Source: a virus (Duplodnaviria > Caudoviricetes). From it: a stretch of 62,139 nt of DNA. A model generated the notes under the pieces. It worked only from the letters and a program-made list of their open reading frames with translations. It was not told where the DNA came from and did not search any database. The stretch is taken from positions 1 through 62,139 of the IMG/VR virus record IMGVR_UViG_3300023179_000110; one strand, written 5' to 3'. The position numbers and the translations under genes are program-made. Within the stretch, counting starts at the first letter, position 1. The number at the start of each line of letters is the position of its first letter. Shown here piece after piece: positions 2,109 to 61,095 of the stretch.

Positions 2109-2509
2109 TTGCCAGCCCACAATCTACGCAACATGTCATTCATACGAATAGCAATGTTTTTCTGCAAGAACCTAGAACGCTCGTTTACAGGACGCTCCAA
2201 GTATTTACGCTGAGTTGGCTCAGTGTGTTTTGCAAAAGATTCGTGAACCCACATTGCATAACTGGCCGCAGGTCCACCATAACCAATGTCCTGATAACTG
2301 ACATCCCCAGAACGCTTGACTGGTGTTACATAACCAGAACCTTTTAAAACGCCCGTGGCAACTGGTACAAGCATTTGTGAACGAGCAAAAATTACTGCCG
2401 ATTCTTCAGCCAAAGCCATTTCAAAAATGTCCGTCAAGTAGGGTGGCGAGTTTTTTAGGGCAAATTTCAACTCATCTAACCCTTCCCATTCAATTCCAGT
2501 TTTAGCCAT
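2105..2509 (-). CDS. HK97 gp10-like neck protein
   Basis: VPVATGVLKGSG, YAMWVHE and KYLERP motifs. Confidence 0.8.
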   Translation of the reverse strand: MAKTGIEWEGLDELKFALKNSPPYLTDIFEMALAEESAVIFARSQMLVPVATGVLKGSGYVTPVKRSGDVSYQDIGYGGPAASYAMWVHESFAKHTEPTQRKYLERPVNERSRFLQKNIAIRMNDMLRRLWAGK

Positions 2510-2511
2510 GA

Positions 2512-2841
2512 TTATCTACCAAACCTAATAACTGCATGGTGATACACGGCAGTTTCATCAGAAATAACGGACACAGAAACAATTGGCGGAGTTGAACCAT
2601 CAGGCAACAGCAACTTAGAATCTACGGTTACGGTAGATACATCGTCAGCCGTTATGATGCGACCAGACGACAACACATCACGCCCATCTTTATCTTTGTT
2701 TAACTGCGTATCGTAAATAAGACGACATTTAAATTTTTTACCCGAACCCCTAGAACGCTTACCATAAGCATCAGTAGTTGTGTACGGATAGATGGTAACG
2801 GAATCAACCATTAACTCAACAAGTTCAGCATCAATAGCCAT
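2512..2841 (-). CDS. Head-to-tail stopper
   Basis: DAYG, LLLPDG, beta-rich 109 aa; synteny. Confidence 0.7.
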   Translation of the reverse strand: MAIDAELVELMVDSVTIYPYTTTDAYGKRSRGSGKKFKCRLIYDTQLNKDKDGRDVLSSGRIITADDVSTVTVDSKLLLPDGSTPPIVSVSVISDETAVYHHAVIRFGR

Positions 2842-3263
2842 TAGAACGACCTGTTATCAGTCATGCCTTCAAAGAAATCAGTCCTACGAGGGGAACTAAA
2901 ATCACGGTCAGAAGTAGCAAGCAAATTATTGCGAGCAACCACAGGAGTAGCAGGGAACAATCTAGCCCTTTGTTCAGCCAACTCATCGGACAATTTGGTG
3001 TATTCGTCAGCCTTAGCAGTGTAAGACTTAGAAATTGTTAAATCGCCAACAGTACGAGTAATGTGGTCAGCCTGACGGGTAAACTTGGCCGCAATTCGTT
3101 CAGCACAAGCCCTACCAGCCTCATACACATTGCCCCAAGTAGCCAACATGTAGGTGTACTCTTCATCCGACATCAACACATCAGTGCTGTCTGTATCCCA
3201 TAGCAAAAACCGAATCAAATCCAAATCAGAATTTGCTGGGTCGCCAGTGTAAGTAAAAGACAT
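2841..3263 (-). CDS. Head-to-tail adaptor
   Basis: FTYTGDP...IRFLLWDT....MSDEE...VGDLTIS pattern; synteny after capsid. Confidence 0.75.
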   Translation of the reverse strand: MSFTYTGDPANSDLDLIRFLLWDTDSTDVLMSDEEYTYMLATWGNVYEAGRACAERIAAKFTRQADHITRTVGDLTISKSYTAKADEYTKLSDELAEQRARLFPATPVVARNNLLATSDRDFSSPRRTDFFEGMTDNRSF

Positions 3264-3279
3264 AATGACTCCTTAAAGT

Positions 3280-3305
3280 AAAAGAGCGACCCTTTCAGGT
3301 CGCTA
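3280..3305 (-). terminator. Intrinsic terminator after the capsid genes
   Basis: Inverted repeat agcgacc/ggtcgct followed by a T-rich tract on the minus strand. Confidence 0.6.
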
Positions 3306-3308
3306 CTT

Positions 3309-3557
3309 CTACTCTACTTCTGTAGTAGGTTTGGCAACCTTTTTGGTTGCTGTAGTTTTTTTAGGCTCTTCAGCCTTGGCTTTTTGAGGTTCGTTCTGCT
3401 CCTGCTTGACGAGGAAGGAACTCAAGTACCGAGTAGCCACTAATTTGTGAGCATGTTTCCATGTTGACACCTCAACGATGTCGCCAATCTGGTAACGAGT
3501 TCCGTTCCCGTCAAACGGACGCAGTACCTCTCGGTACTGCTTAGTCATGTTATGCAA
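3309..3557 (-). CDS. Small capsid-associated hypothetical protein with Lys/Ala-rich tail
   Basis: Directly after the major capsid gene; YREVLRPF...YQIGDIV. Confidence 0.65.
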   Translation of the reverse strand: MHNMTKQYREVLRPFDGNGTRYQIGDIVEVSTWKHAHKLVATRYLSSFLVKQEQNEPQKAKAEEPKKTTATKKVAKPTTEVE

Positions 3558-4527
3558 CCACCGAAGCGAAGTAAACGCCTAGGTCAGCACCGATAACCTT
3601 GTTATCGAAAGCCATTTCAGCCTCAACACGGGTAGCCTTGATGCTTTCCATGCGGAACTGTGAAGTACCGATGGTCTGACCAAGACCGCCTGAAACACCA
3701 TTCCAAGCGAAGGTGTAACCAGCCGAAGGAGTTAGGAGGCCTGGGTTGGTAGCAACATGGCAAAGTAGAGCAGACTTACCAACATTGAACGCATAGGCAC
3801 CAGTGGCACCTTCGTTGTTGGTTGCCTTTACTGACTTAGCAACAAGCACACGGTCAACGCCAAACATACGAGCAATCATGTCTTCGGTGATGACATTTGA
3901 AGAGGTGTACTTGATACGGTCAACCAAATCAGGGTGATTCTTCAACTTACGGAATACCTGATAGCCAAGAACAAGAGTGTTTGCCTCAAAACCAGTGGTT
4001 GAAAGAATGGTTTCTTTTGCAAGTTCCATGTCTTCCAATGGGTCAGAGTTAGTGAAATCACTCCACTGAATGAACTGATTGGTAGTAGCATTTGAAGCAA
4101 CACCAGTTAGGTCGGTACCCCAAACACCAGTCTTGATGTAATCGGTAACAAACTGAATTTCCTTGCGAAGAAGCATACGATTTGTTACGAACTCAGCGGC
4201 CTCACGAAGAGGTGACAAAGGTGCGTCAGAGTTAGCGATGGTCTGGTCGCCGACATCCTTGTGGAATGCGAATACATCTGCACTGTAGGTATCAGTGTTC
4301 AGGCTGTAGCCAGAACCTGCTGATTCAGTAGCATCTGCACGGCGTTGTGCCTCATCACGGAACCAGTCGTTCTTGGTGTAAGTGAAGAACTTATTGCTCT
4401 TCTTATCTACAGGAACAACAGGGAAAACCTTGTCGGCAATGTAATTCTCAGCCTTCTGCATGTAAGCAACTGAGATGTTGGTGAGAATAGCGTCAATGTG
4501 AACGCTATTAATGGATGGCTGTGGCAT
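3550..4527 (-). CDS. Major capsid protein (HK97 fold, lambda gpE-like)
   Basis: LTNISVAY...IADKVFPVVPV...SDPLED...NTLVLG...LKNHP; 325 aa; synteny. Confidence 0.92.
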   Translation of the reverse strand: MPQPSINSVHIDAILTNISVAYMQKAENYIADKVFPVVPVDKKSNKFFTYTKNDWFRDEAQRRADATESAGSGYSLNTDTYSADVFAFHKDVGDQTIANSDAPLSPLREAAEFVTNRMLLRKEIQFVTDYIKTGVWGTDLTGVASNATTNQFIQWSDFTNSDPLEDMELAKETILSTTGFEANTLVLGYQVFRKLKNHPDLVDRIKYTSSNVITEDMIARMFGVDRVLVAKSVKATNNEGATGAYAFNVGKSALLCHVATNPGLLTPSAGYTFAWNGVSGGLGQTIGTSQFRMESIKATRVEAEMAFDNKVIGADLGVYFASVVA

Positions 4528-4540: not shown

Positions 4541-4933
4541 TTAGTTAGCCCGTGTAGCGTTGGCACAGTTGATAACGGCTGTAACAACATTTCCGTCTGC
4601 TCCAGAAGCAGTAATCAATGAACCGACAACATACTTGGTGGTATCTGTTGTGGTCAAAGCAACTGCTTTACCTGTAGCACCAGTACCGATTGCACTTGGA
4701 AGCGTGATTGAAGCACCAGCGACAACCTTGGTTCCACCTACAATTAGAACTTCTGCTTCTTGACCTGAAATTGGTGCGTTCTGAAGAACTCCAACAGGAA
4801 CATCGGTAGCGGCCGCAACGGCAATAGCCTGACCACTTGAATTCAACTTAACAAAGTTGTACTGCTTTGCGGAAAGGTCTTCACCTGCAACAAGTGTCAC
4901 CTTTACGCTGTAATTACTGAACTCGTATGCCAT
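4541..4933 (-). CDS. Capsid decoration/cement protein (DUF2190-like)
   Basis: AGEDL..YNFVKL...PVGVLQN...GQEAEV...GTKVVAG; immediately before the capsid gene. Confidence 0.8.
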   Translation of the reverse strand: MAYEFSNYSVKVTLVAGEDLSAKQYNFVKLNSSGQAIAVAAATDVPVGVLQNAPISGQEAEVLIVGGTKVVAGASITLPSAIGTGATGKAVALTTTDTTKYVVGSLITASGADGNVVTAVINCANATRAN

Positions 4934-6501: not shown

Positions 6502-7267
6502 CTTCGTCAGACACCTTTACATCTTTTTTGGGCTTCTTCTTTTGCCCACCCATAACAGTATCCACATGAACAGTGTTCACTGTAGGACCCGACACGGTAG
6601 ATGAACTGTCTTCTTTAGCAACTGGCAAATCAACTTCAAGACGCTGGGCACGACCACCAATCGAATAACCCATCAACTTTCCAGCCTTGACCATTTCCCA
6701 AGCCCAAGGTTCCCAAACAACGCCAAGGAAAACTGTGTCTTTAGGAAAAGTTACATCTTCCATGGTTCCGTCAGATTTCTGCATGGGAACTGATACTTCG
6801 TAAGGCCACGCCATTACTTCAACCCATTCACCAGCAACGATGTCTTTATTGTGCTGTAAACGAATACGGCGGTCATCTTTACGCACATAATCCCAAACTG
6901 ATTTCTGCAACTCAGCAGAATCTGTCCATTCACCATGAGCATCAACACGGTCAGGAACATACATTGGACCTAGGGTGTATCGGTTTTCGTTGACAGCCTT
7001 GGAAACCAAAGACATTTTTTTAACTGGTGTTTCGATAAATTGGTCAAAAAATCCTTCGCTGTAGGAATCCTCAATGTCATAGTCGGCATCGCCCCATTCA
7101 GCAGGAATAGCCATAGCAATGTCGTAATTTTTTAAAGATTGATAAGTTTCTACAAGGTCATTGTAAATTTTTTTTGTTTCTTCGTTAGAAACATACTTAC
7201 TATTAGACGCTTCAATTCCTGCACAAACTTCCTGCGTCATTAAATCAATAATGCGAGCATCAATCAT
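6488..7267 (-). CDS. XkdF-like putative prohead serine protease with ~85-aa N-terminal extension
   Basis: RYTLGPMYVPDRVDAHGEW...RLQHN...WEMVKAGKLMGYSIGG is the XkdF pattern. Confidence 0.85.
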   Translation of the reverse strand: MIDARIIDLMTQEVCAGIEASNSKYVSNEETKKIYNDLVETYQSLKNYDIAMAIPAEWGDADYDIEDSYSEGFFDQFIETPVKKMSLVSKAVNENRYTLGPMYVPDRVDAHGEWTDSAELQKSVWDYVRKDDRRIRLQHNKDIVAGEWVEVMAWPYEVSVPMQKSDGTMEDVTFPKDTVFLGVVWEPWAWEMVKAGKLMGYSIGGRAQRLEVDLPVAKEDSSSTVSGPTVNTVHVDTVMGGQKKKPKKDVKVSDEDVSD

Positions 7268-9327
7268 TATTTAACTCCCCCTTTCTTAGTTGATGCAATC
7301 AAAACTGGCGGTGCCCCTTCGGGGCGAGTGTCATGATTTGTGTCGAATAACACAAAATTATCAAACTCTTTTGACATCTTTGGCATTATTGAAGACACAG
7401 ATTTGTGATTAGCCAAAAAATTATTTGCTGGAACTAATCCACGATTAGGGTCTTCAATCGCCCTTTGCATGTTTTGTTTCCAAGCCAAATCAATACTTGC
7501 ACTTACATAACAACCGTTAACTTTGTATCCAGCGTTTCTCGCTTTAGCAATTTTTTTGCCCAAACTGGCTTCACTTGAATTTCCAGTTCCATCTAAGAAA
7601 ATGTCCATGCCAGCCTTGGTAGCGGCCGCATCAATTGCTTTACCCAAATCAGATGATTCTTCGTGCGTCCAACCTGCAACATCCAATTTTCTGCCATTGT
7701 CAACAAATACTTGAAAATCTGGCAATTTTGCTTTTAACTCATCCGCATCAATAATAACAGCCTTGCCTTTTTCTGGCAAAATTACACCATGTTCTTTGGC
7801 TAACTCAAGGGCTTGTTGATTCCTTCTAATCGTTCCTTTTCCAGAACCGCCACCGCCACCCATCATGGTAAAAGTTGGGTCACTAGAACGAGGAATTCCT
7901 TTTAAGGCTTCTTTAATAATTTCGGCGTGTAAAGCCTCACGCTCAGGAGTGTAAATGTAATTACCATTTCCATCGTCCATCAAATAATGCCAAAGACCAG
8001 TTGTGTCAGCCGAAATTTCCTCGCCTTTGTATGTAATAGTGCGAGGTTTCGCCAAAACTTCTGGACGATTGCTTCCGTAACCCCAATCGTAGGTTTCAGG
8101 GTCAAAAGATTCGTTTCTTTTAACCTCAACTACATTTTGAGTTTTTAAAAATTCAGCCCATCGGTTATTTAAATCAGAAACAGTTGTTCTATCAACTGAT
8201 TTATTAATAAAATTTTGCCAAGCAGTGCTGTCGTGAATTTCAAGACCGTCAGCAAAGTTTTCACTTGCACCGCCATGTGCCCAGTTTCCGTGCGTTTTTT
8301 GGTCGTGATGTCCATGTTTCAACAATGGAACCGTGCTTAACTGAGGTATTACTGGGTCAACTAAAAGACGGCGATACCTGCGTTTTGCACCATTTAAAGC
8401 ATCAAAAAATCCTGCGTCTGTAACAATTTGGTCAGCATAAACTGGGCTGGTTGACCAATGCTGATTTTTACGGAATTCGTCTAACAATCCATGCAATTCT
8501 TCATGTCGTTTCATGACAGCAGGAATGGCAAAAGGGTTTGAATTCGTGCGTTTTAACTCAAGTCCTTGACCGTAGCCCTCGTTGTAAGACAACCGAATAG
8601 ATTTTTTACTTAAAGTTTTGCCAATCATTTGAAAATCAGAAGCACTTACAGAAGAGCCATGTGCCCAATCGCCGTGAGTTGATTGGTCGTGTTTGCCTTG
8701 CATGTGCTTAGACATGCCATTTAACAAATCTTCAGGAATCACCCAGAACTTGCACAAAGCCATGTGGTCAATTTGACCTTCAACAATCTCACAACCGCCA
8801 CCGCCTTCATAAAAAATGCAGTTGGCACACATCAAACCTTCATCAACAAACGGGTTATCTTCCATGTAATGTGCCCCGTTAGCATCTGAACTCTGATTAA
8901 ATTTGCCAACCGCTTCGGTTAAAGATTCCAAAAACTCGTAAATAGCATTTTGCGTGGGGTTTAATCTATCTTCGGGTTCGCCCTCTTTTTTAACGGTATC
9001 AAACTTTAGGGTGTAGCCATCAACCGTCAAAATAGTGGTTTTTGAAACTAAATCGGGATAACCCAACTCAGCATTGACCGTATCAACTACATCAGCAGGA
9101 ATTCCGTTAAAAGCCTTATTTACGGGGACATTGTTTTCAACGCCTACCTCAATAACAGCCCGATTCCATTCGTCCCCACTATGCCCATGGTCTAAACCAC
9201 GAACCAACAATTCCGTTGTAACAAGGTGGTGGGCTTGAACTTTTACGGGGTCATAAACATCCGCATGCAATGATTTATGCAATTCCTCTAATTGAGCATT
9301 GCTTAATTTGTTTAAATCAAATGACAT
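7267..9327 (-). CDS. Tagged polyprotein: His-rich N-domain, HiPIP-like domain, tag + unknown domain, tag + Zeta-toxin-like P-loop kinase
   Basis: CANC...C...C HiPIP pattern; two HDQxTHGxW tags; GGGGGSGKGT, IIDADELK, HEESS, LDGT Zeta motifs. Confidence 0.85.
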   Translation of the reverse strand: MSFDLNKLSNAQLEELHKSLHADVYDPVKVQAHHLVTTELLVRGLDHGHSGDEWNRAVIEVGVENNVPVNKAFNGIPADVVDTVNAELGYPDLVSKTTILTVDGYTLKFDTVKKEGEPEDRLNPTQNAIYEFLESLTEAVGKFNQSSDANGAHYMEDNPFVDEGLMCANCIFYEGGGGCEIVEGQIDHMALCKFWVIPEDLLNGMSKHMQGKHDQSTHGDWAHGSSVSASDFQMIGKTLSKKSIRLSYNEGYGQGLELKRTNSNPFAIPAVMKRHEELHGLLDEFRKNQHWSTSPVYADQIVTDAGFFDALNGAKRRYRRLLVDPVIPQLSTVPLLKHGHHDQKTHGNWAHGGASENFADGLEIHDSTAWQNFINKSVDRTTVSDLNNRWAEFLKTQNVVEVKRNESFDPETYDWGYGSNRPEVLAKPRTITYKGEEISADTTGLWHYLMDDGNGNYIYTPEREALHAEIIKEALKGIPRSSDPTFTMMGGGGGSGKGTIRRNQQALELAKEHGVILPEKGKAVIIDADELKAKLPDFQVFVDNGRKLDVAGWTHEESSDLGKAIDAAATKAGMDIFLDGTGNSSEASLGKKIAKARNAGYKVNGCYVSASIDLAWKQNMQRAIEDPNRGLVPANNFLANHKSVSSIMPKMSKEFDNFVLFDTNHDTRPEGAPPVLIASTKKGGVK

Positions 9328-9364
9328 TTGAACTCCTCACCGAAAGAATAGCAAACAAGGTTGA

Positions 9365-11129: not shown

Positions 11130-14100
11130 TGCCTTTGCCAGCCAACATTTCCTTAGTAGCCTTAGTCAAACTTGTTGATTTTGGAATAACAATTGTGGCA
11201 ACATCATCCAACGATAAACCGCCATGAATTTGAGTTTCAACATAACCGTAAGTAGCAATTTCTCTTAAATCAGCCTTGCCACTGTATCCAGTTATTCCAC
11301 CCCACTCTGGTTTTCCAGTACTAATGCTGTTTTTCCAATTGTAAGTTTTGCCAGAACGATTTGAATTGTTAAAAGTGTTAATTAATAAGCCAAAATGAGT
11401 GTCCCATAAATCATTTACAGAAACTTTGCCATTAGCGTAATCTTCCAGCCAATGAGTTCCATTAAGAAATCCGTCTAAAGAATCGCCAATTGTTGCTGTT
11501 GTTCTATGTTTTACCGAATCTTTAAAAATTACTTGGGCATCGCCATAAGTTGATTCTTTAGAACTGCGTCCTATGACTCCGTAAACGGGACGCTTATCGT
11601 TAGGTGTTTCGCTCGGAATGCCCATAATGTCAAATTCAAATTCATTTCTTCTTTCCATGTATTTTTGCCTAGTAGCCCCTTTTCCAGACAAAGTGGTTTC
11701 ACTAGCAGTTCGATAATGGTCTTCAGTTATGAATTTTTTTAATTTACCTGTACTCATGGTTAAAGAAACATCATTATTATTTGCAATTTCTTGCATTTGG
11801 TCTAACAAACTTTGAGCCACGCCATCTATGACTTCGCCAACAGTTTGCCCACTTGGAAATTTAATTTGACGAATTTTATTTTGAACAAATTTATTTTCCG
11901 CAACAAGATAAGCCCGTGCTGATTGAAAATCTTGTTCAGCCCAAACATTTATGGCTTTTCTTCTCAACTCATCAATGTTTGAATCAGAAAATTCTTTGTT
12001 TTGTTCAATAATTTGTTTTGCCCACCAAGTATTTGCAATAGCCGTATCCATAAATTTTTTAGGGATTTGAGGATAATTTGGGTCGTTAAAAATGGTTTTT
12101 GTCAATTTTTTTATTGCGTCTAAACCCGAAAAATTTTCGGAACTTTTGGATGAATTTTTTAATGCTAAAACCGCATAATAAAATTCTGCTGTGGAAACAG
12201 GTGTTCCAACCCAACTTGTAGAATCTGTTTGCAAAATTCTTGCAATAGGTCCGAAACTGTTAGCAACATCTTCTTCATAAGACATAGCAGGAATTGAAGA
12301 AAAACTTTTTTTTCGCCCTGAAAAATCTAACTCATAAGGTCTGTCGGTTGAATGACCGTGTGCCCAGTTGCCATGACTGGACTGGTCGTGTTGTCCTGCA
12401 AAATGTTTAAAAAAAAACGAATTTACTGGAACCTTGACAATTACTGAGGTTTTGGCAACTTCTTGTAAATCTGTTCCGCCCAAGTCATAATTTCCTCGTC
12501 CGTCATCTCGTTTAACGGCTTCGGCGACTGAGCGATGTTGATTATTTCTTTTTTCGACTGTTCCACCAGTACCTCCTGTTTGAATCTCATCAAAGTTGAC
12601 GACATCCCAAATACTGATTTGGTTACGCCTTCTACCTAACGAAATTGCTTGTTTCTTGTCAACGATTTTGTCCGTAACATCCAAATGAACTCGTTGCTGG
12701 TCTTTTGGTATTTCTACCGTAACACCATTAACCGTTTTGGTTGTTTCGTGCCAAACACCGAGATAAGCACGACCAGAACCTAATTCTGCTTTGTTCTTAA
12801 CCAAGAACGCACCCAGAATTTTGGCTCCTTTATCCTCATTAAAGAAGTCTGATGCCATTACAACGGTGCCGAACTTGTCACTGTTTCGAGATACCATGTA
12901 GCCATCTGGGGGCAGTGAGCCGTCCGTTAACTTGATTGATAAACCACCATTTTCGGCTACTTGACTCAAAACATCATGAACAACTTCTGGTGCAACATGG
13001 CTGTTGAACCTGCGTCCGTGAGTTGATTGGTCGTGTTGACCTTGAAGGTGTTTCTCAACCTCGGTTGATTTAATCTTAGCCCGTAATACCGCAATGTCAA
13101 ATGCCAACATTTTCTTCATGTTTTCTTTATTTGACTCACCAAGAGCAATTGGCTTAATTCCAACGGTTTTATTCCAAGCCAAAACAACTTTAATTAATTC
13201 GTCATGAGGCAAATCAACTTTTAAAGCCTTCATTTTCACATTTTTATGTTTTGGTTTTAAACCAAGAAACAAAGCGGCCGCCCAGCGATGGTGTCCGTCA
13301 ATCACATAATCATCTTTAGAAATAGTAATTGGAGTATCACCAACTCCATCTTTTTCCATTGACCGCATAATTTTTCCAGATTTAGAAGCAGAAATTTCAG
13401 CCTGAATTGGGTGTAGTCCAAAGGGAGCAACATCAACCATTTCAACTTTAACTCCACGGTCTTGCATAGCCTTAATAAAATCATTTTGAGTTCCAGCAGG
13501 AATTTGAGGCATTTTGTCACGCATAATTCCAAGATTGTCCCTTGTGAAATACTGCGTTCCTAAAATTTCCAAATTAGTTAAATCGGGATTATCTTTGCGG
13601 TCAGCCATTGCATCCAACCATGCTGGAGCGTCAATTGGGCTAACAATACCTTCTTCGCCAGCAACTACTTTGTCGTAAGCGGTTTGAACTGGATGTGGAT
13701 ACGGATTGCCTTCGGCAGTGTTTTTACGGTCAACAGCATGTCCGTGATGTCCAGCCCAGTTGCCATGCGTGGCTTGGTCGTGCTGACCTGATAAATGTTT
13801 TTGAACTGCTTGCGGATAGTAAGACCATTCGTACAAAGAATTGCCATCAGTGTAAATTTCATTAGCGTGAACTGTGGTGTGCAAAATGTCGTAATCACCA
13901 AAACGAGCAGTCACACTACTTTCGCCATGTAATTTGGCGTATTCTTCGGAAATAGTAACCCAATCACCAGCATTAACTTTAGTAACGCCTTTGGGTACAG
14001 CACGATAAATGGTCACATGAGCATCGGGTTTATTACGAATACTTACAAGCAAATCATGGATTTTTTTATCTTCAGCCCTATTACTGCCACCGTGCCCATA

Positions 14101-19721: not shown

Positions 19722-19723
19722 AA

Positions 19724-28432: not shown

Positions 28433-28761
28433 TCTTTTTCCTTTTCTTTTTGGAGTTCTTTCAATAAAGCCCTTTTTTCACGGGCTTTTATTGCTTGTGG
28501 TGTTGTTGACAAAAACTCAAAAATTGGTTTTGCAACAATTCCTCTAGTCTTTCTTATCACTTTTCGTTGCGGATAGGTAGTACCGCCCCAAATTCCTTGC
28601 ACATCAACTTGAACTGCGTACTCCAAGCATTCCGTAACAAAGTGACATTTTTGACAAATTTTCATGGCATCTCTGTTTGCTCTTATTAAAGAACCTTCGG
28701 GAAACCAAATTTCTGGGTCAACTTGGGCACATAATTGTGACCCATCAAAATCTGGGTACAA
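28429..28761 (-). CDS. whiB: WhiB family transcription factor
   Basis: CAQVDPEIWFP...ICQKC....ECLEYA...GIWGG: four Cys plus GIWGG turn. Confidence 0.93.
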   Translation of the reverse strand: MYPDFDGSQLCAQVDPEIWFPEGSLIRANRDAMKICQKCHFVTECLEYAVQVDVQGIWGGTTYPQRKVIRKTRGIVAKPIFEFLSTTPQAIKAREKRALLKELQKEKEKE

Positions 28762-40069: not shown

Positions 40070-40677
40070 TAATCATCAGCCTCTAAAGATTTTTTTAAAA
40101 GATTTTTAGTAGTAGCAAATTTACGCAAATGGGCTTCCGCATAACCAAATCCAGCCAAATAAGCCGTAGCATAATCGTATGTACCAAAATCATTAGTAAT
40201 TATGTATCGTTTTGGTTTTCGTAAACTACTCAACTTTACAGGTTTTTCACCGTGGCTAGTTTTTTGCTCCCAATACTTAATGCCATCCTCAAACGCTTTA
40301 CGCCCAGTGTTTCTGCTATTACCAACTGATGCATAGGCTCGCATGGCCGCTGTATGTGTTAATTTTTTAAACACTTCAATGTCATCATTTTTTATTGCGT
40401 CTTCAATTTCTTGTGGACTGAATTTGCGTTTTGTTGATGCTGGGCTTACATAATCTGATTTGGGTTTTGTTGTGTTGGTGGTGCTGGGTGCATTATTAGT
40501 GGTGTTAGGTGTTGGATTAGGTGCAACATCAACATTGGAATTGCCACCATTATTGGAACCACCATGTGCCCAATTACCGTGTGCTGATTGGTCGCCTGAA
40601 CCATGCTTCTCTAGTTTTTCTGCTAAAGATTCCATCTGGTCTTCTAGTTCTTGAAGAATTTCGCCAAGATTGCCCAT
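40069..40677 (-). CDS. Tagged protein (coiled-coil leader + tag + unknown domain)
   Basis: LEKHGSGDQSAHGNWAHGG. Confidence 0.8.
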   Translation of the reverse strand: MGNLGEILQELEDQMESLAEKLEKHGSGDQSAHGNWAHGGSNNGGNSNVDVAPNPTPNTTNNAPSTTNTTKPKSDYVSPASTKRKFSPQEIEDAIKNDDIEVFKKLTHTAAMRAYASVGNSRNTGRKAFEDGIKYWEQKTSHGEKPVKLSSLRKPKRYIITNDFGTYDYATAYLAGFGYAEAHLRKFATTKNLLKKSLEADD

Positions 40678-42867: not shown

Positions 42868-43392
42868 TTACTCTTCCGTTTCTCGCTTGCTTGCTATCTG
42901 AAGGATTTTGCGTTCCAATTCATCTGAGGCAACATCAATTTTGATTGCTCCACCATCGGCTCCTGTAATTTCGGTGTGGTCGGTGCGTCCCCATTTCTTC
43001 GGGTATGAGCGTTCCAGATACCATGCTGATGCTTGCCATGTTCCCGTACTCGCGGCCTGCTGGATTTGCATGACGGCTCGTAATTCGGATTCTGCCCGTA
43101 CCTTTTCGACTGCCACCAAGAATTCTAGAAACACTACCTCGGTTTCATCTGGTTGGCTGTCAGGAAATACCTCTAGCCTGTCCCGTTCTTTCTTTCCACG
43201 GGCTAACCAATTGAATAATGTGGCTTGACTGATTCCTGCGTAACTGGCCGCCGTATCTAGATAACAGCCAGATTTTAGGGCTTCAAGGATGATTTCTGAT
43301 TTTTCTAGCGTTAATTTGGTTTTGCGTCCAACGGTAGGTTTTTTGGCTGTCGCTTTTTTTGCTGGTGTGGCTTTTTTAGGCGTTGCGGTCAT
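42868..43392 (-). CDS. terS: Terminase small subunit
   Basis: GRKTKL...G.YLDTAASYAGIS..TLFNWL..G...WQASAWYLER. Confidence 0.85.
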   Translation of the reverse strand: MTATPKKATPAKKATAKKPTVGRKTKLTLEKSEIILEALKSGCYLDTAASYAGISQATLFNWLARGKKERDRLEVFPDSQPDETEVVFLEFLVAVEKVRAESELRAVMQIQQAASTGTWQASAWYLERSYPKKWGRTDHTEITGADGGAIKIDVASDELERKILQIASKRETEE

Positions 43393-45696: not shown

Positions 45697-46079
45697 TATG
45701 AGGTTCCTGTTCCTTTTATGTGTAGTGTCAATCCGTTTTTTGCTCTTGTGGGTTGTAGAAATGTGATGGAAGTTAAAAATCTTGGCGAGTCGTCCACCAT
45801 CACTCCTGCATCTACAAGTCCGTCAATGGCCGCTTTACATGCTGGGTTGCATGCCCCAACATCTTGAAGTCGTCCTTTTTCTTGCTGTACCGCTACTGTG
45901 ATTTGCACATCCGTCAGTTGCGGTATTTGTTGCTGTTTGGCTAGGTAGTAAAAGGCAGTTCGCCATGTTTTGACATTGTTTGCCCTTTCCCACCTGTTTC
46001 CTGCTCGTTCTGCGTTTGTCGTCCACGGTTTTTGAGCAAAATGGAGCGTGAACTCATGGGTGTGAGTCGTGCTACACAT
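45696..46079 (-). CDS. RusA-like Holliday junction resolvase
   Basis: TTN.ER...D......KAAIDGLVDAGV..DDS. Confidence 0.8.
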   Translation of the reverse strand: MCSTTHTHEFTLHFAQKPWTTNAERAGNRWERANNVKTWRTAFYYLAKQQQIPQLTDVQITVAVQQEKGRLQDVGACNPACKAAIDGLVDAGVMVDDSPRFLTSITFLQPTRAKNGLTLHIKGTGTS

Positions 46080-48897: not shown

Positions 48898-49188
48898 CTA
48901 TTGACGATTGGTTAAGAGAGCCTGTAAAAGTTCCCGAATAATGGTAATTTCGCCCGAAATTTCGTTATTAACACGCTCATTTGCGTTAACTTTATCCATC
49001 AAACTAGAGCCACCGTTGGGCCACAATTGGTGTTCAACTCTACCAATACGCTCTGACACGGTGCGACCTTCTCTGTCTAATCCTATGGAGGCATCAATTC
49101 GTTTAGTCAACTGATAGATTTTAACAATCCCACCGAGGATTACAATTATTGAGCAGGTAATTGCCAAATAGGATTGCCAAAGTGTCAC
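48898..49188 (-). CDS. Small membrane protein (possible holin-associated)
   Basis: N-terminal TM, PNGGSSL.D motif; end of tail operon. Confidence 0.7.
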   Translation of the reverse strand: MTLWQSYLAITCSIIVILGGIVKIYQLTKRIDASIGLDREGRTVSERIGRVEHQLWPNGGSSLMDKVNANERVNNEISGEITIIRELLQALLTNRQ

Positions 49189-53488: not shown

Positions 53489-56400
53489 TTACTTAGCCTT
53501 ACCTTGACGCACAGCCTCGGCAAACGCCTGTTTAATAGCCTTTGTCATCCACTTGTTCATTTCAACTCTTGTTGCATGGTCAACATTAGCCCCGAAATGG
53601 AACTGGAACGCACCATTTTGGAAAGTTTGAACTGTTGTAGCCTGTACACCTTTAGCCTCAGCCACACCCATGTTGAACTGAGATTTTGCACCAATGTCGC
53701 CAATTGCGTAGGCACCAACATCAATTGCAGATTGCAATGTATTGACTTTTTCTACACCACTTTTACCTGCACCAATCAAGGCTTTAGCCATCTTGTCGCC
53801 AGCCTCAGGTCCTGCTCCAATTAACTCCTGTAAATAAGCATTATTTAATCCCATACCAGCAAGAGTTTTTAAATCTTTGCCAAATTCGGTAATGCGAGCA
53901 AGACGCTGTTGAAGATTTGCGTAAATCATTTCTGCACTTACTGGTGTGTCAGCAGTTGCTTGCAAAGACATTAAACTGCCATAAGAACTAATGTTTTTGC
54001 GTATTTCATCAGCAAAATCTAAAACTTCTTGTGCTTTTCTTTTCATTTCATCTAAAACTGATTTAGCAGTGTCTTTAGCGATTTCTTTTGCACTTTTACC
54101 AAGTTTTTTAAGGTCATTAACCATTTTTTCATTTGCTGTGACAATTGGATTTTTACCCATGTCTTTTGGTTGTTCTGCACCTTTACCAAAAAGGTCGCCA
54201 GCAAGTTCACCAAAATTTTTGGCTGTTTCTTTTAATCTTGAAGCAAAATCATCGTTTGCGTGAGATAAAACTGTGTCACCAGCACTTGTAAGCCAAGCAC
54301 CAGCCTTTAATGCACCGTCAGAAATCGTGTTAACTACAGTATTTACAATACCTTCAACTTTTCCAGCAAAATCAGTGGCTTGGGCACCCCATTTCACTAA
54401 TTGAGTTCCAGCAATTCCAAAAGCCTTGCCTAAAAATTCAGCAACTTTTTCACCAACTGGTGTGTTGCCAACATTTCGCACGGTTTCAGCCCAAGAATCT
54501 AATTTGTCGGCAAATCCAAGCATTTGGTCGCCAATTTTGACTCCCCATTTTTGTGCAGTATCACCTAATTGAGCAGTTGAATCTTCAACTTCAGATTGTG
54601 CCCCAAGAATACCTTTAGCCCAATTTGTTACACCGTTAACTATGCTTTTGCCAAGATTCCAAATTGCCTTACCAACGCCTTTAAAAATTTCAAACAAAAT
54701 GTGACCAAGATTTTTTGCAATTCCAATTAATCCGTTGACAACTTCAGTAAATGATTGACCAAAAGATTGCATTCCAGTCAGCCATTTGCCAAGTCCACGC
54801 AATACCGTAGCAACTCCTTGTAAAATTGCGGAAATGACTGCACTGTAAACTTTTAAAATTCCGTTGACAACGGCTACTATTGCTTTGTAAAGAACCCCAT
54901 GGGCTTTAATGTTTTCTGACATGGCTAATAAAAATCTGCCGTACATAGTCAAAACAAAACCAATTACAGTAAAAATTGCTTTACCGATAGCGGTGTACCA
55001 TTGTCGAATGAATTTACCAAAACCACTGGTTGCACTCATCAATTGCCCGTATCCAGTCACAAGCCAACCCAATGCTTTTAATGCATAGCCAATTGTTGTC
55101 ATTACAATTTTTGCTATCGCATTAAACGCTTTATCCACATTTTTTGCAAATGCAGTAGAATGTTGATACGCATAAATAAACGCACCAACCAAAACAACAA
55201 TTACGGCTGTGGTAGCCAAAATTTGCCAGTTGACTCCAGCCAACATTTTTTTAACAAATTCAGTAGCCTTACCCCACAATTCAGTAGCCTTTGAAACTCC
55301 CTGAGTTCGCAACATGTAAATAGCCAAAATAGCGACAATTGCGTAAACAACAATTCGGTGTTTATCAAGCCATTGAACTCCAACTGCAAGCCATTTAGCC
55401 ATTCTTTCAAGACCCATAGCAACTAGATGCAACGCACCATTTAAAACTTTGCTAAATACGCCAGCAACTTCCATGCCAATGTTAAGTAAAGGTTTCAATG
55501 AAGTCACAATGCTCATTAATGCATGTTGAATTTCTGGACTGGTCAAAATCATGCCGACTAAAGCACCCAAAACAGGATTTAAACTTTCAAGAAATCCACC
55601 GATAAATGGCAAATCGCCCAAGAAAGTATTTCCAGCCTTAATAGCCAAAAATCCTGTTAAAGCAGTAATAAAAGGCATCAACATGGCAAATTTTTGAGCA
55701 AGGTGTTTAGTTTGAGCGTTTAACTCTGCAACTCCTTGAGCAGATTCACGCCATTTTTTGCTCATTTCAAAAAGTTCTTGTTTTTTCTTGAAAAATTCTG
55801 CAATTTTAGCAATCATTTCTGTTGCAGGTTTCATAATGTAAGTAAACACACGACCAATTGCATCAAAAATGTAATTTAAAGCACCACCTTCACGAACAAG
55901 ATGACTAAATGCTTTAGTTGCTTCATAGGCAGTAACAATCAAAGGTCCAAATGCTTTAGTTAGTCCTTGACCAACTGCTTCTTGAATGTCATCAAATAAA
56001 CGAGGAAATGAACGCAAAACTTTTGCAGGTTCTTTCATTGCTTTTTCATAAACGCCAGCAACTTTGGCACCTTCAGCAATAATCATGTTGGTGATGGCCG
56101 CTTTTTTATCCATTTCAGTCATGGATTTAACGCTCATGTGATTGGCAACAGCGTATTCACTAAATGCTTCTGAAGCAGATTTTGTAATACCAACGGAACG
56201 AAGCATTTGCGTATCTTGATTCATGATGGCGTAAGTCAAACGGGTTGCAGTTTCCGTTGAATTGGATTGCGAGATAACAGCCAAATCCTGAGCAACACGA
56301 GAAACTTGTTGAGCCTTAGCCACATCAAGATTTGCTTTTGCATAAAGCAAAACCATTTCTTGGGCCGCATGCATTTCAATACCGTTATCACGAACAGCAA

Positions 56401-56758
56401 GAGTCGCATCTCTTAATTTCAAATAACCAAGACCAGTGGAACGACCAACCGCTTGCATCGCAATGTCAAGTTCGTTAACACGGGCGGCCGCTTCAAAAGA
56501 CTTAACGCCAAAATGAACTAATGCACCGCCAGCAATACCAGCAACAACGCCAAGTGAAGCAAGTCCTTTGTTAATCAACTCGGAACGCATTTGCATGCCT
56601 TCCATGCTTGCGGTCATTCCATTGATTTGTTCAGTTCCACCAGAAACTGCTTGTTGCATACGCTGTGCAGAATCGGCGGCCAGTTGCATGCCACGCACAA
56701 AATTAGCGGAGTCAGCAGAAATCCTCGCAATGACATCGGTTACGATGGATTCGGACAC
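53489..56758 (-). CDS. Tape measure protein
   Basis: 1089 aa Ala/Gly-rich amphipathic repeats; after tail chaperones. Confidence 0.92.
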   Translation of the reverse strand: MSESIVTDVIARISADSANFVRGMQLAADSAQRMQQAVSGGTEQINGMTASMEGMQMRSELINKGLASLGVVAGIAGGALVHFGVKSFEAAARVNELDIAMQAVGRSTGLGYLKLRDATLAVRDNGIEMHAAQEMVLLYAKANLDVAKAQQVSRVAQDLAVISQSNSTETATRLTYAIMNQDTQMLRSVGITKSASEAFSEYAVANHMSVKSMTEMDKKAAITNMIIAEGAKVAGVYEKAMKEPAKVLRSFPRLFDDIQEAVGQGLTKAFGPLIVTAYEATKAFSHLVREGGALNYIFDAIGRVFTYIMKPATEMIAKIAEFFKKKQELFEMSKKWRESAQGVAELNAQTKHLAQKFAMLMPFITALTGFLAIKAGNTFLGDLPFIGGFLESLNPVLGALVGMILTSPEIQHALMSIVTSLKPLLNIGMEVAGVFSKVLNGALHLVAMGLERMAKWLAVGVQWLDKHRIVVYAIVAILAIYMLRTQGVSKATELWGKATEFVKKMLAGVNWQILATTAVIVVLVGAFIYAYQHSTAFAKNVDKAFNAIAKIVMTTIGYALKALGWLVTGYGQLMSATSGFGKFIRQWYTAIGKAIFTVIGFVLTMYGRFLLAMSENIKAHGVLYKAIVAVVNGILKVYSAVISAILQGVATVLRGLGKWLTGMQSFGQSFTEVVNGLIGIAKNLGHILFEIFKGVGKAIWNLGKSIVNGVTNWAKGILGAQSEVEDSTAQLGDTAQKWGVKIGDQMLGFADKLDSWAETVRNVGNTPVGEKVAEFLGKAFGIAGTQLVKWGAQATDFAGKVEGIVNTVVNTISDGALKAGAWLTSAGDTVLSHANDDFASRLKETAKNFGELAGDLFGKGAEQPKDMGKNPIVTANEKMVNDLKKLGKSAKEIAKDTAKSVLDEMKRKAQEVLDFADEIRKNISSYGSLMSLQATADTPVSAEMIYANLQQRLARITEFGKDLKTLAGMGLNNAYLQELIGAGPEAGDKMAKALIGAGKSGVEKVNTLQSAIDVGAYAIGDIGAKSQFNMGVAEAKGVQATTVQTFQNGAFQFHFGANVDHATRVEMNKWMTKAIKQAFAEAVRQGKAK

Positions 56759-59000: not shown

Positions 59001-59129
59001 TTCCAGTCCCGTCTGTAGGCAAGGCGAAATCCCTGCCATAAGACCACCAAGGGTACGGTAACGGCTGGGGACACCTTGGTCACTTCGTTACCACATAGAA
59101 TACATTTTTTGCGTGACACGCCCATAAAG

Positions 59130-59178
59130 AAACGCCGAGTCATTCCGAAAGCAAGAAAAGAAATGACTCGGCGTTTTT
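59130..59178. terminator. Intrinsic terminator hairpin
   Basis: aaacgccgagtcatt ... aatgactcggcgttt perfect 15-bp stem. Confidence 0.75.
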
Positions 59179-59267
59179 GTTTAGGAAGGACAAACTAACT
59201 AAACAAGCAAACCGTTAGGGAGTTTGCATGTTAGCCAGTTTAACCAGATGAATCATGTTGGTCAACT

Positions 59268-60512
59268 TTACAGTTGCCATTCAATGTTTTTCAAGGCTTC
59301 TTTTTCAGCCTTGGTCAACTTTGGCTTAACCTCGGAGCATCGGGTCAACAGTGTTGAGTTCAAACCTTTGTAATTATCAAATCCCTTGACCGTTCCCTTC
59401 AGGTCAACCACACTGCCAATCTCTGCATCAAAACTGCCAGTTGAGAACCATTTGAATCGGGCACCCTCAGCAACGAAGGTGTAGATGGTTGTCCAGCCGT
59501 AGTCACTAGCGAATCCGAAGATGTCCACCACCTTGGCTTTGTTCAGTACCAACTTGGTGCCAGTTTCAGCAAACTGCGTTTGGATGGTAACTTCGCCTTC
59601 CAACTCAAGACGCTTGTTGGCTTCGGCTTCGGCTTTGGCTTTTTCCCACTCGGCTTTTTTCAAAACCGCAATGACCGAAACCAGCAACCCGACCAAGGAA
59701 GGAAACGCATACTCACTTTTAAGTGCAACCTTCAAGTTGTCGTAGTAACCGCCATGTTTATCGGCTACGAACTCAAGACCCTTGACGATGATGTCTTTGG
59801 CTTCGGCTTCGTATTTGCCAGTGGAGATTGAATCCCGTGCTTGAGTAAAAGGTTTGATGTAAGAGTTTTCGGTTTGTTCCACGGAAACCGAATAATCAAA
59901 ACCCAAAACTTTTTCTTTGGTTGAACCGTATTGACTGGATGGGATGTAGCCACCGTCAATTTCTGCGATAACCGCTAGGGCTTTTTCCAAAGCCCGAACC
60001 GTGGTGTCTGGGTAATCCCGAACGCTTCCGTAGCCACCAAACGCTTCTTCCAACTCATCCTTGGAACTAACAATGCTTGGCGTGAAAACCCAGCCCAAGA
60101 AATCTTTGGTACAGGTAGAGCCAACCACTTTGCGTTCGCCTTCGGCGTTTTCAACTACGACTTGGTAGTTACGCTTACGATTGGTACCACAGTGGTCACA
60201 GGCGTTTTGTTTAACCAGTGAACGGTCAATTTCAGCACCTTCGTAGTTAGGCGAAGATTTAGTGACAAATAAGTTTGTTTCAGGAACCCATTCGATGACC
60301 CCAACAAAAGTCCAACCACCGATTTCATAAGGTGTACCCGTAACAACAATTTCGTAATTGACTGCAAGCGTTTCTGGATTGATTCGCTCAATAAGTTCAA
60401 CGGAATAACCGCCGTTCAAGCCTTTTTTCTTACCACGCTTGACCAGTTTTTGAGCCTTTTCAAGCGATGCTTGGGCTGATAACGGGTCAACTACCCAACT
60501 GAAGATTTCCAT
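59268..60512 (-). CDS. Zn-finger + C-terminal OB-fold-like hypothetical protein
   Basis: CDHC...R.R......VGSTC..DFLG; C-terminal FKWF...LKGTVK....Y.G...T.LTRC. Confidence 0.8.
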   Translation of the reverse strand: MEIFSWVVDPLSAQASLEKAQKLVKRGKKKGLNGGYSVELIERINPETLAVNYEIVVTGTPYEIGGWTFVGVIEWVPETNLFVTKSSPNYEGAEIDRSLVKQNACDHCGTNRKRNYQVVVENAEGERKVVGSTCTKDFLGWVFTPSIVSSKDELEEAFGGYGSVRDYPDTTVRALEKALAVIAEIDGGYIPSSQYGSTKEKVLGFDYSVSVEQTENSYIKPFTQARDSISTGKYEAEAKDIIVKGLEFVADKHGGYYDNLKVALKSEYAFPSLVGLLVSVIAVLKKAEWEKAKAEAEANKRLELEGEVTIQTQFAETGTKLVLNKAKVVDIFGFASDYGWTTIYTFVAEGARFKWFSTGSFDAEIGSVVDLKGTVKGFDNYKGLNSTLLTRCSEVKPKLTKAEKEALKNIEWQL

Positions 60513-60567
60513 TTAGCCTCCCTGTCCTTACAGTTTAAGTTTAACACAACTTGGGTTTAGTTTCAAC

Positions 60568-60756
60568 TTAACGATAACCAGCGTCATGAAGTGCTTCGAA
60601 AATTAAAGCCACATCTTTTCGGGCTTTTTCGTATCGGGCTGGTTCTGCAACTGGGTCGAATACATAAGATTCGTACGCCTGAAGCACTGAATCGAGTTTT
60701 GCTATTTGTTCTGCACTGAATTCAACGGTAATTGTGGTGCCTTTTTGGATTCCCAT
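60568..60756 (-). CDS. Hypothetical protein
   Basis: GGAAGGACA RBS and upstream promoter motif. Confidence 0.65.
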   Translation of the reverse strand: MGIQKGTTITVEFSAEQIAKLDSVLQAYESYVFDPVAEPARYEKARKDVALIFEALHDAGYR

Positions 60757-60789
60757 AAAGTGTCCTTCCTATCTGACACTTTCATCCTA

Positions 60790-61095
60790 TCACACCTTTG
60801 GTTTAGTTTTTGCCATTTCCCGTTCAGCCCGTTCCTCACGAACCATGGCTAAAGTTAAAAAGTATCCAATGCCATCAATTATGGTGTCGGATTTTGGTTT
60901 GTGAACTTCACGAGCAATTTTTACCCCAATCATGCACAAGGCAACTTGTTCAGCACTGACAGGAATCCCCAAAATGGACTCCCAAATTAACCCAGCACGA
61001 GAAAAATCGTCTAGTGGATGCCCGTACTCATCGTTTCTATCCCCACTAACCAGACTGGCCGCATACGAGGCAATGTCATTGGGATGTTGCATCAC
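60790..61095 (-). CDS. DUF6378-like protein
   Basis: A..LV.GDR...YG.P...F......W..ILG......QVALCM...K.AR......D...D..GY. Confidence 0.8.
   Translation of the reverse strand: MMQHPNDIASYAASLVSGDRNDEYGHPLDDFSRAGLIWESILGIPVSAEQVALCMIGVKIAREVHKPKSDTIIDGIGYFLTLAMVREERAEREMAKTKPKV

Follow-up and report, generated by a model that had tools for sequence, protein, structure and literature searches.

The DNA analysed here (hereafter the window) is the whole of the IMG/VR record IMGVR_UViG_3300023179_000110, a single contig of 62,139 bases with 42% G+C that constitutes the complete ~62-kb genome of a freshwater siphovirus-like phage, its genes lying mainly on the minus strand. The analysis concerns two short words, GGCC and the degenerate palindrome GCNGC (N, any base), together with a putative cytosine modifier encoded by two overlapping genes, one for a CmoA-like carboxy-S-adenosylmethionine (carboxy-SAM, Cx-SAM) synthase and one for a C5-cytosine methyltransferase homologue. 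Wherever GCNGC survives in the window, it is nested in GGCC. The nested sites, the remaining copies of GGCC and selected genes are collected in Table 1.

Table 1. Nested and free GGCC sites and selected genes of the window. ORF, open reading frame; a codon in round brackets precedes the Ala run and its final G completes GGCC.
Feature	Position	Strand	Context
Nested GGCCGC (coding GCG GCC, Ala-Ala)	2264..2269	-	ORF 2105-2509
Nested GCG GCC, Ala-Ala	3087..3092	-	ORF 2841-3263
Nested (GAG) GCC GCT	4196..4201	-	Major capsid gene 3550-4527; G of the preceding Glu codon completes GGCC
GCGGCCGC, Ala-Ala-Ala (GCG GCC GCT)	4809..4816	-	ORF 4541-4933
GCGGCCGC, Ala-Ala-Ala	7622..7629	-	ORF 7267-9327, protein with C-terminal zeta-toxin-like domain
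GCGGCCGC, Ala-Ala-Ala	13274..13281	-	ORF 11083-14361
Nested ATG CGG CCT, Met-Arg-Pro	22776..22781	-	Sole non-Ala-Ala nested site; a synonymous Arg codon could avoid it
Nested GCG GCC, Ala-Ala	40345..40350	-	ORF 40069-40677
Nested GCG GCC, Ala-Ala	42358..42363	-	Large terminase gene 41254-42858; kept in L008, L015
Nested (CTG) GCC GCT, Ala-Ala	42569..42574	-	Large terminase gene; kept in L008, L015
Nested (CAG) GCC GCG, Ala-Ala	43052..43057	-	ORF 42868-43392, small-terminase-like; overlaps one of 3 CGCG
Nested GCG GCC, Ala-Ala	43246..43251	-	ORF 42868-43392
Nested GCG GCC, Ala-Ala	45828..45833	-	ORF 45696-46079; un-nested in G003 (GCG GCG)
Nested GCG GCC	56096..56101	-	Tape-measure gene 53489-56758; Ala-Ala new on window branch
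Nested GCG GCC, Ala-Ala	56363..56368	-	Tape-measure gene
GCGGCCGC, Ala-Ala-Ala (GCG GCC GCC)	56484..56491	-	Tape-measure gene
Nested (CTG) GCC GCC, Ala-Ala	56676..56681	-	Tape-measure gene; G001 has (ATG) GCC GCG
Nested GCG GCC, Ala-Ala	61057..61062	-	ORF 60790-61095
GGCCTGG (coding CCA GGC C, Pro-Gly-Leu)	3738..3744	-	Capsid gene; forced CCWGG overlaps GGCC
Free GGCC, Trp-Pro-forced (TGG CCT)	6804..6807	-	
Free GGCC, Gly-Pro (GGC CCC)	23304..23307	-	Alternative GGW CCN creates GGWCC, equally purged
Free GGCC, Trp-Pro-forced (TGG CCC CAC)	42482..42485	-	Terminase
Free GGCC, Trp-Pro-forced (TGG CCC)	49019..49022	-	
CmoA-like carboxy-SAM synthase gene	25647..26285	-	14-nt overlap with methyltransferase gene
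C5-cytosine methyltransferase homologue	26272..27228	-	PF00145, E 8e-72; CmoX-type signature
WhiB-like gene	28429..28761	-	Actinobacterial-host marker; adjoins SSB
Ferritin/Dps-like gene	6004-6501	-	PF00210, E 3e-14; among head genes

An exhaustive count finds 23 copies of GGCC and 22 of GCNGC in the window, the latter divided into 14 GCCGC and eight GCGGC, with neither GCAGC nor GCTGC present. All 22 GCNGC are nested, 14 as GGCCGC and eight as GCGGCC, and they fall at 18 distinct loci, four of which read GCGGCCGC. At 17 of these loci the minus strand encodes Ala-Ala or Ala-Ala-Ala in frame, and two spellings occur at the Ala runs: GCG GCC, or GCC GCN behind a codon that ends in G. The single locus out of frame with respect to Ala-Ala lies in an ORF of 1129 amino acids (aa) that also contains two of the three CGCG of the genome. 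A preliminary description of this DNA had claimed that Ala-Ala sites are written GCGGCC or GGCCGC although GCT and GCA are the common Ala codons, and both halves of that claim hold: among 1681 Ala codons, GCT (629) and GCA (582) outnumber GCC (323) and GCG (147), GCG being the rarest. Its list of 17 places stands, to which the nested locus at 22776 has to be added. Five GGCC lie outside the nested loci; three of them were correctly put down to Trp-Pro codons, and those at 3738 and 23304, which have other causes, had been overlooked. An abundance of GCWGC (W, A or T) or of free GGCC would speak against the rule, and the full count gives zero and five.

The strength of the rule was assessed against a null in which synonymous codons were shuffled within genes (300 replicates). 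The null places 4.7 ± 2.1 of 60 ± 5.9 GCNGC over a GGCC, a nested fraction with a mean of 7.9% and a maximum of 20%, compared with the 100% observed. GCNGC and GGCC are both purged, as had been proposed: GCWGC is absent where 33.7 ± 4.7 copies are expected, and the 23 GGCC compare with 104.8 ± 8.4. The control word TGCA, with 314 copies, matches its null of 313.9. In addition, all Ala spellings at the 17 Ala-run loci were enumerated with the real flanking codons kept. Each locus admits 4–10 spellings free of all the other words that have zero counts in the window, 2–6 of which lack GGCC, and the genome always picks one of the 1–4 nested spellings, an outcome with a probability of 10^-9.5 under uniform choice (the product of the per-locus fractions). 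Other banned words do not force the nested spelling, and the nesting of GCNGC in GGCC is confirmed more strongly than it was first noted.

Four whole IMG/VR records (G001–G004) and 17 terminase-centred loci were compared with the window. Nucleotide identity to the window over aligned blocks is ~86% for G001 and ~84–88% for G002; G003 and G004 (52% G+C) have median protein identities of 56% and 45%. GCWGC is absent from the window, G001, G002 and G003 and occurs 183 times in G004. For GCSGC (S, C or G), the nested fraction is 22/22 in the window, 22/32 in G001, 29/47 in G002, 1/65 in G003 and 48/220 in G004, with nested counts of 4.7, 4.8 ± 1.9, 4.3 ± 1.9, 9.1 and 47, respectively, under the codon shuffle. 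The un-nested copies are clustered, 8 of 10 in G001 at 19152–20309 and 13 of 18 in G002 within 14169–16878. The G001 patch corresponds to a stretch of L008 without an alignable counterpart in the window, which has a tail-fibre-like gene (37470–39737) at that position, suggesting recent recombination; the patch looks like a recently imported host-range module whose sites have not yet been cleaned. The patches at G001 19065–20309 and G002 ~9800–18800 are rich in free GCSGC, GCGC, ACGT and CGCG, words purged elsewhere in these genomes.

The relatives also bear on how the rule is kept. The Ala-Ala of the capsid gene is nested as (GAG) GCC GCT in the window and as (GAA) GCG GCC in G001 and G002, and is un-nested in G003, as (GAA) GCC GCT, and in G004, as GCT GCA; other Ala-Ala are likewise nested through differing spellings in different genomes. 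Where Ala-Ala is new on the window branch it arises directly as GCG GCC, as at 56096, a pair that is Gln-Ala in G001 and G003. Only 8 of the 43 Ala-Ala in G003 orthologues are retained in the window, the others having become Gly-Ala, Ala-Gly, Thr-Ala and similar pairs. Since the window nests one and the same Ala-Ala through another spelling than G001 and G002 do, the rule is, on the evidence of these spellings, maintained by selection and not by chance inheritance, which bears out the earlier proposal that unavoidable GCNGC are kept only where their cytosines are shared with GGCC. An edited copy of a relative was ruled out as the origin of the window, which shows ordinary divergence from L008 (~86% nucleotide identity over 8.8 kb).

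A similar overlap is found at CCWGG. The residual copies of this word overlap GGCC at 1 of 2 sites in the window, 3 of 3 in G001, 3 of 4 in G002 and 1 of 3 in G003, at about four distinct positions; for the window, G001 and G002 together this amounts to 7 of 9 sites, compared with a per-site null of ~15% even without a purge of GGCC. The overlap at 3738 is also present in G001 and G002, and G003 has it in a similar Pro-Gly-Leu context. The GGCC of a Trp-Pro-His in the terminase is un-nested in the window lineage (TGG CCC/CCT CAC) and nested in most wider-family relatives (TGG CCG CAY; Y, C or T).

The nesting rule stands within a purge of short words that is extreme. Seven of the 16 four-base palindromes are at zero in the window (ACGT, AGCT, ATAT, TATA, CCGG, GATC and GCGC), with CGCG at three, as are CGWCG, GTCTC/GAGAC, CCCGC/GCGGG and GCWGC and the six-base words CTGCAG, CTCGAG, GTCGAC, ATCGAT, ACTAGT and GTGCAC; CCNGG occurs twice and GGNCC 21 times. 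The codon shuffle predicts between 34 and 220 copies of every zero-count word: 187 of ACGT, 220 of AGCT, 140 of GATC, 93 of CCGG, 88 of GCGC, 183 of ATAT and 122 of TATA. ATAT and TATA excepted, we take these words to be classic type II specificities, and we know of no type II enzyme that has either of those two as its target; their loss may reflect host endonucleases of a specificity not yet described. ATAT is also at zero in G001 and G002, and TATA in six high-GC terminase relatives (L009, L010, L011, L013, L014 and L017), G001 and G002 having 25 and 40 copies of TATA and 35 and 34 of CGCG. AGCT is absent from the window, G001–G004, the 17 terminase loci and all 40 methyltransferase loci of at least 9 kb described below, including genomes of 52–60% G+C that purge almost nothing else; its avoidance is very old and clade-wide. 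The flanks of residual GGWCC, TCGA, CTAG and CGSCG show no additional shielding context. One 5-kb bin, 30000–35000, which includes plus-strand genes at ~32480–34962, contains 27 of the 74 residual TCGA and seems less purged for this word than the remainder of the window.

The purge extends to the proteome. The three most depleted dipeptides are Pro-Gly (2 observed, 56 expected), Ala-Ala (21, 139) and Gly-Pro (14, 56), whose codons force the N-containing palindromes CCNGG, GCNGC and GGNCC, respectively; Trp-Pro, which forces GGCC, occurs 3 times compared with 14 expected, and Gly-Pro is spelled GGW CCN at 13 of 14 sites. Because the most depleted dipeptides are those that force palindromes, the purge has altered protein sequences and not just codons. 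The depletion is graded across relatives: the observed-to-expected ratio of Ala-Ala is 0.15 in the window, 0.21 in G001, 0.33 in G002, 0.42 in G003 and 1.18 in G004, a series that roughly tracks the share of allowed spellings (16/16 in G004, 8/16 in G003, ~2/16 in the window), and that of Pro-Gly is 0.96 in G004 and 0.04–0.07 in the window, G001, G002 and G003. We infer that restriction enzymes are the selective agent behind the purge, because the zero-count words coincide with presumed type II specificities and are cut to nothing from nulls of 34–220, and because the dipeptides that force palindromes are the most depleted, in a graded manner.

The window, G001, G002 and G003 each have a single DNA-methyltransferase-type gene, that of the candidate cytosine modifier, and G004 has none. 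PF00145 is matched once in each of the first four genomes, and none of the five has a match to the methyltransferase families PF01555 and PF02086 or to a CmoY-type ligase (PF00733). The methyltransferase homologue scores 262.8 bits against TIGR00675 (cutoff 100.65). Its catalytic Pro-Cys motif, GFPC at residues 68–71, is invariant in the family, and its Arg-300 aligns with Asn-304 of M.HhaI (LGR(300)TI versus FGN(304)SV). All 67 distinct family proteins examined carry this diagnostic Arg and GGFPCATF as motif IV, so that SPPC is absent from each. The family comprises 7,794 database proteins at E <= 1e-20, among which no informative name hints at a specificity. The CmoA-like protein matches TIGR00740 (E 2e-29) with 102.8 bits, below the curated cutoff of 193.3, and has E. 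coli CmoA (4iwn/4gek, E 6e-24, full length) as its top structures; 75 of 80 family loci pair the enzyme with a CmoA-like match. In the account of Yang et al. 2025 (PMC12783734), phage CmoA feeds carboxy-SAM to CmoX, which makes 5-carboxymethylcytosine (5cxmC); CmoX is a methyltransferase homologue with Arg in place of M.HhaI Asn-304, binding the Cx-SAM carboxylate, and the 5,615-member set described there is defined by the SPPC motif. The window enzyme is, by its signature residues, a candidate CmoX-type carboxymethyltransferase of a GFPC lineage outside the published SPPC set.

Conservation of the enzyme is uneven along its length. The ratio of non-synonymous to synonymous differences (pN/pS) of the catalytic core is 0.09–0.12 relative to G001 and G002, which indicates strong purifying selection. 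In the recognition block the ratio is 1.7 on the window branch, with 13 residues deleted in frame, and 0.33 between G001 and G002; judged by these comparisons, the block has been remodelled only on the window branch. A frameshift was ruled out as the cause, the changes being in-frame deletions of 6 and 33 nt plus substitutions. Across the family this region, whose residues 174–248 are modelled at a predicted local distance difference test score (pLDDT) below 50, consists of 1–4 repeated modules of the PTL/TLTA...GG type, and the residues deleted in the window include most of one PTLLAQMGTGGGNVP-type module. Among structures, the enzyme matches M.HhaI over its full length (E 1e-49), SpCmoX (8yf3) over residues 91–163 only (E 5e-11) and M.HaeIII only within residues 1–162.

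Word counts in loci that carry the enzyme give an indirect view of its target. In 40 relatives' loci of at least 9 kb with the enzyme, GGCC occurs 0–9 times where 12–60 copies are expected, and CCGG, AGCT, GATC and mostly ACGT are near zero, whereas GCGC reaches or exceeds expectation in 35, falls slightly short of it in three and is near zero in two, which belong to the window's own lineage; in G003, GCGC reaches 202 copies compared with a codon-shuffle null of 158 ± 10. Because GGCC is purged and GCGC tolerated in the carriers, the phage enzyme is probably not directed at GGCC, and the suggestion of the preliminary description that the rule points to GGCC, or GCNGC, as the target of a phage or host cytosine modifier finds no support here as regards the phage's own modifier, so that its interpretation holds in part. 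A GCNGC or GCSGC target is likewise disfavoured: the enzymes of L093 and L096 are 97% identical, and these loci contain 1 and 16 GCSGC (41 and 12 GCWGC), respectively, in 21 kb. Modification by the phage of GpC in general, or of GCG, was rejected as a shield, because it would not distinguish nested from free GCSGC. For the enzyme family, a GCGC target like that of M.HhaI is the simplest guess; the window, with no GCGC and a conserved enzyme, leaves this guess with a puzzle. Outside the window lineage, GCGC is significantly enriched and not merely tolerated in carriers (G003, which corresponds to L029–L032, and family loci L039–L115), and its purge in the window lineage (0, 12 and 27 copies) is a reversal within ~56% protein identity. 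TGCA is at zero in L074, L098, L099 and L100, and the list of banned words shifts fast between close relatives. In the wider family, 82 enzyme-carrying loci (834 kb) contain 55 GGCC compared with ~2050 expected. Of these survivors, 27 belong to a GCGGCC; they represent about eight distinct positions, some of which could have been avoided, so the hexamer is tolerated well beyond the window lineage; nested GGCC stands at ~0.23 of the neutral expectation and free GGCC at ~0.015.

The most economical explanation of the nesting appears to be a shield on a shared cytosine, in which a mark on a GGCC cytosine protects the GCNGC nested with it, the mark being somewhat more likely to come from a GGCC methyltransferase common in the host population than from the phage; we give this reading a probability of about 0.55. 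Many type II restriction enzymes would exert very heavy pressure on the phage, which would remove their targets by synonymous change and, where the genetic code forbids this, by changing proteins: Ala-Ala imposes GCNGC, Pro-Gly CCNGG, Gly-Pro GGNCC and Trp-Pro GGCC. The Ala-Ala that are retained are spelled GCG GCC or (G)GCC GCN, so that GCNGC shares cytosines with GGCC. In GGCCGC/GCGGCC, a single base on one strand serves both as the inner C of GGCC and as the first C of GCCGC, and HaeIII-type and Fnu4HI-type methylases alike methylate this shared base. With a GGCC-directed mark, the nested GCNGC would therefore be hemi-modified, at the least, at the base canonical for it, and in GGCCWGG the mark would also fall on the outer C of CCWGG. 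With most virions marked, nested sites would escape endonucleases of the GCNGC and CCWGG types. A lone GGCC would still be costly, some virions being unmarked or the marking incomplete, and would be kept only where it is forced or pays.

As the layer of the mark, a host GGCC methylase is slightly favoured over the phage module. Every locus carrying the phage enzyme shows the same severe purge of GGCC, whereas GCGC is tolerated in most of them; only one DNA-methyltransferase-type gene is found per genome; the rule holds with the remodelled recognition block of the window and with the unremodelled one of G001 and G002; the window lineage has un-nested the forced GGCC of Trp-Pro-His, as would be expected if the GCSGC half were a liability; and the best full-length structural relative of the enzyme is M.HhaI, which recognises GCGC. 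Several points weigh against the shield. Free GGCC is at the minimum forced by protein sequence, Trp-Pro is depleted and Gly-Pro takes the GGW CCN spelling, so GGCC alone is unsafe and its protection must be partial or population-dependent. In the wider family, 27 of the 55 surviving GGCC are part of GCGGCC, some of them gratuitously (GCG GCC GCA), although GCSGC is unpurged there, a pattern for which a host GGCC methylase gives no explanation, and 0 of 168 CCWGG in the 82 wider-family loci overlap GGCC. The shield also presumes that overlapping GGCC methylation blocks GCNGC- and CCWGG-type enzymes, and shared ancestry makes the counts from the relatives in part pseudo-replicates.

The same evidence bears on the alternative in which the phage CmoA/CmoX itself carboxymethylates GGCC, or the hexamer GCGGCC, and phage-laid 5cxmC is the shield, a possibility we consider unlikely, though it survives best among the alternatives. 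Partial modification by the phage would explain why free GGCC is avoided, and has a precedent in phage S-B43, which modifies only ~75% of its GC sites according to the published account (PMC12783734). A hexamer-directed enzyme would explain why the composite only is tolerated, and tolerance accompanies the enzyme family-wide (27 of 55 GGCC). The module is present and constrained, with a CmoA-like protein and an Arg-bearing methyltransferase homologue, and its recognition region is modular and remodelled in the window; a GCGC-only enzyme would, in addition, have no site in its own genome. Against this, all 40 carriers have GGCC among their most strongly purged words, and the G003 enzyme, whose recognition stretches RQNGRR and FTLTAQDRHGV match those of G001, G002 and the window in an HhaI-based alignment, nonetheless coexists with 7 GGCC (null 101) and one nested GCSGC (null 9.1). 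Nesting is common to remodelled and unremodelled recognition blocks, and enzymes 97% identical go with opposite tolerance of GCSGC. A hexamer-specific enzyme would leave unexplained both the CCAGGCC overlaps and the un-nesting of the Trp-Pro-His GGCC in the window lineage. We find doubtful the extension of this idea to a 'nesting code' of freshwater phages, in which unavoidable sites share a cytosine with one master motif and the mark comes from a retargeted phage carboxymethyltransferase. A single modification event would then cover the targets of several enzymes, the ancestral GCGC target of this enzyme, whose recognition block was remodelled on the window branch, would have been erased from the genome, and host restriction enzymes would have rewritten the codon usage and amino-acid pair content of the whole proteome.

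It is still less probable that no modification is involved and that GCGGCC is a poor substrate, or none, for the endonucleases driving the purge, whether because these enzymes recognise words longer or more degenerate than GCNGC and GGCC that leave out the hexamer or because a G+C-rich flank makes the site refractory. The tolerance of the hexamer in every lineage would then require no marked virion, and the tracking of Ala-Ala frequency by the share of allowed spellings looks as if the hexamer were nearly cost-free. However, we know of no specificity that bans HGCCGC (H, any base but G) and free GGCC yet spares GGCCGC; flank effects are normally modest and the rule is absolute (22/22); and neither the CCWGG–GGCC overlaps nor the ~4-fold deficit of the hexamer relative to the neutral expectation in the wider family is explained. 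A role unrelated to restriction, such as an Ala-Ala codon-pair or translation effect or a DNA signal for packaging, recombination or regulation, is very improbable: GCGGCC is indeed ~2-fold above the ~10.5 copies expected from base frequencies (22 observed) and its sites are conserved in relatives, but the Ala-Ala position alone explains 17 of 18 sites, which have no common flanks, both orientations are used (GCG GCC and G followed by GCC GCN), G003 and G004 encode the same Ala-Ala by other codon pairs, and the rule is seen only where GCSGC is otherwise purged.

Beyond these sites, the window encodes structural proteins (a major head protein, large terminase, tape measure and tail proteins), a Mu-type portal with a MuF-like protein, a tail terminator, a prohead protease, SSB, WhiB, ERF and Gam, and has a match to DUF732; no tRNA genes were found in it. 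The host is probably an actinobacterium, given WhiB and DUF732 and given that the closest cultured relatives are Arthrobacter and Microbacterium phages, with at most 61% capsid and 52% terminase protein identity. A megablast search of the window against a phage collection returned no direct relatives, and scans of bacterial genomes with terminase and WhiB queries found no relative. Positions 1–950 and 61190–62139 form a terminal direct repeat of 950 nt with 97.9% identity (20 mismatches), containing neither GGCC nor GCNGC, and the ORFs at 2–1096 and 61092–62138 are two copies of one gene; the repeat probably arose as an overlap in the assembly of a genome that is circularly permuted or terminally redundant and that varies within its population. 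Public runs that contain the window sequence are labelled lake or freshwater metagenome, one of them being its probable source, and in a run from a second study an 18-kb stretch was matched at >=99% identity in 36 of 37 contig pieces, so that the sequence is genuine rather than an assembly artefact. A minus-strand block at 7267–23113 separates the head genes from the MuF/portal genes and consists of very large ORFs (686, 1092, 510, 559, 401 and 1129 aa) with smaller ones of 263 and 302 aa. Domain matches in this block include a zeta-toxin-like kinase, an SprT-like protease, a ParB-like protein (PHROG), a DRAT-like ADP-ribosyltransferase, DUF3626 and a weak ATLF-like match, and its proteins are similar to the 'polyvalent' anti-defence proteins that other phages inject.

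Avoidance of restriction sites is commonly regarded as a slight statistical bias at synonymous positions; here, it is near absolute for at least a dozen words and measurably reshapes protein composition, with Ala-Ala falling from 1.18 to 0.15 of expectation over graded relatives. The nesting rule implies that the way in which recognition sequences overlap can be turned to advantage by phages. Were the shield true, virion modification and host enzymes could be read from sequence alone for uncultured phage–host pairs, restriction-proof DNA would gain a design principle, and 5-carboxymethylcytosine systems would extend to a large family of 7,794 proteins, in which all 67 examined have the Arg.

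Avoidance of restriction sites in lytic dsDNA phages is well documented (Sharp 1986, Rocha 2001 and Rusinov 2018, as summarised in PMC8410138), and the window resembles these cases in that short palindromic type II targets are under-represented mainly through synonymous codons; the summary in that review describes avoidance as synonymous only. The window differs in having seven of 16 four-base palindromes and several 5–6-mers at exactly zero, in a purge that reaches Ala-Ala, Pro-Gly, Gly-Pro and Trp-Pro, and in the nesting of unavoidable sites. A literature search, which was not exhaustive, found no account of dipeptide purging or of nesting of unavoidable sites. That overlapping methylation blocks a restriction site is familiar from Dam/Dcm overlap and from combinations of methylases and endonucleases used as rare cutters. 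One methyl group on a shared base would likewise protect a second site in the window, but what is an in vitro or cloning nuisance, or a tool, would here be an evolved genome-wide spelling rule. With the CmoA–CmoX system of S-B43, as described in PMC12783734, the window shares adjacent CmoA-like and C5-methyltransferase-like genes, Arg for Asn-304 and a ParB-domain protein; unlike the set described there, it has GFPC and not SPPC as motif IV, M.HhaI as the nearest structure and no detected CmoY-type ligase, and S-B43 modifies GpC globally whereas the window phage purges most GC-containing targets. The window enzyme would therefore have to be narrower than that of S-B43. Bacillus phages SPbeta and phi3T carry multispecific C5-methyltransferases acting on GGCC and GCNGC. 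A related prophage-type enzyme protects HaeIII, Fnu4HI and Bsp1286I sites, according to the account in PMC3459991. The window enzyme is likewise a putative phage-borne cytosine modifier, and the joint handling of GGCC and GCNGC by the Bacillus enzymes, through tandem recognition modules, indicates that both specificities co-occur as threats. Unlike in the Bacillus phages, which keep their sites and rely on full self-methylation, the window phage removes sites and nests the remainder, its enzyme's specificity looks GCGC-like, and GGCC is purged in all carriers. Synonymous avoidance, blocking by overlap and CmoA/CmoX were already known, whereas the literature searched gave no precedent for the purge at the level of the proteome or for the nesting rule. 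The observation is solid and the proposed mechanism plausible.

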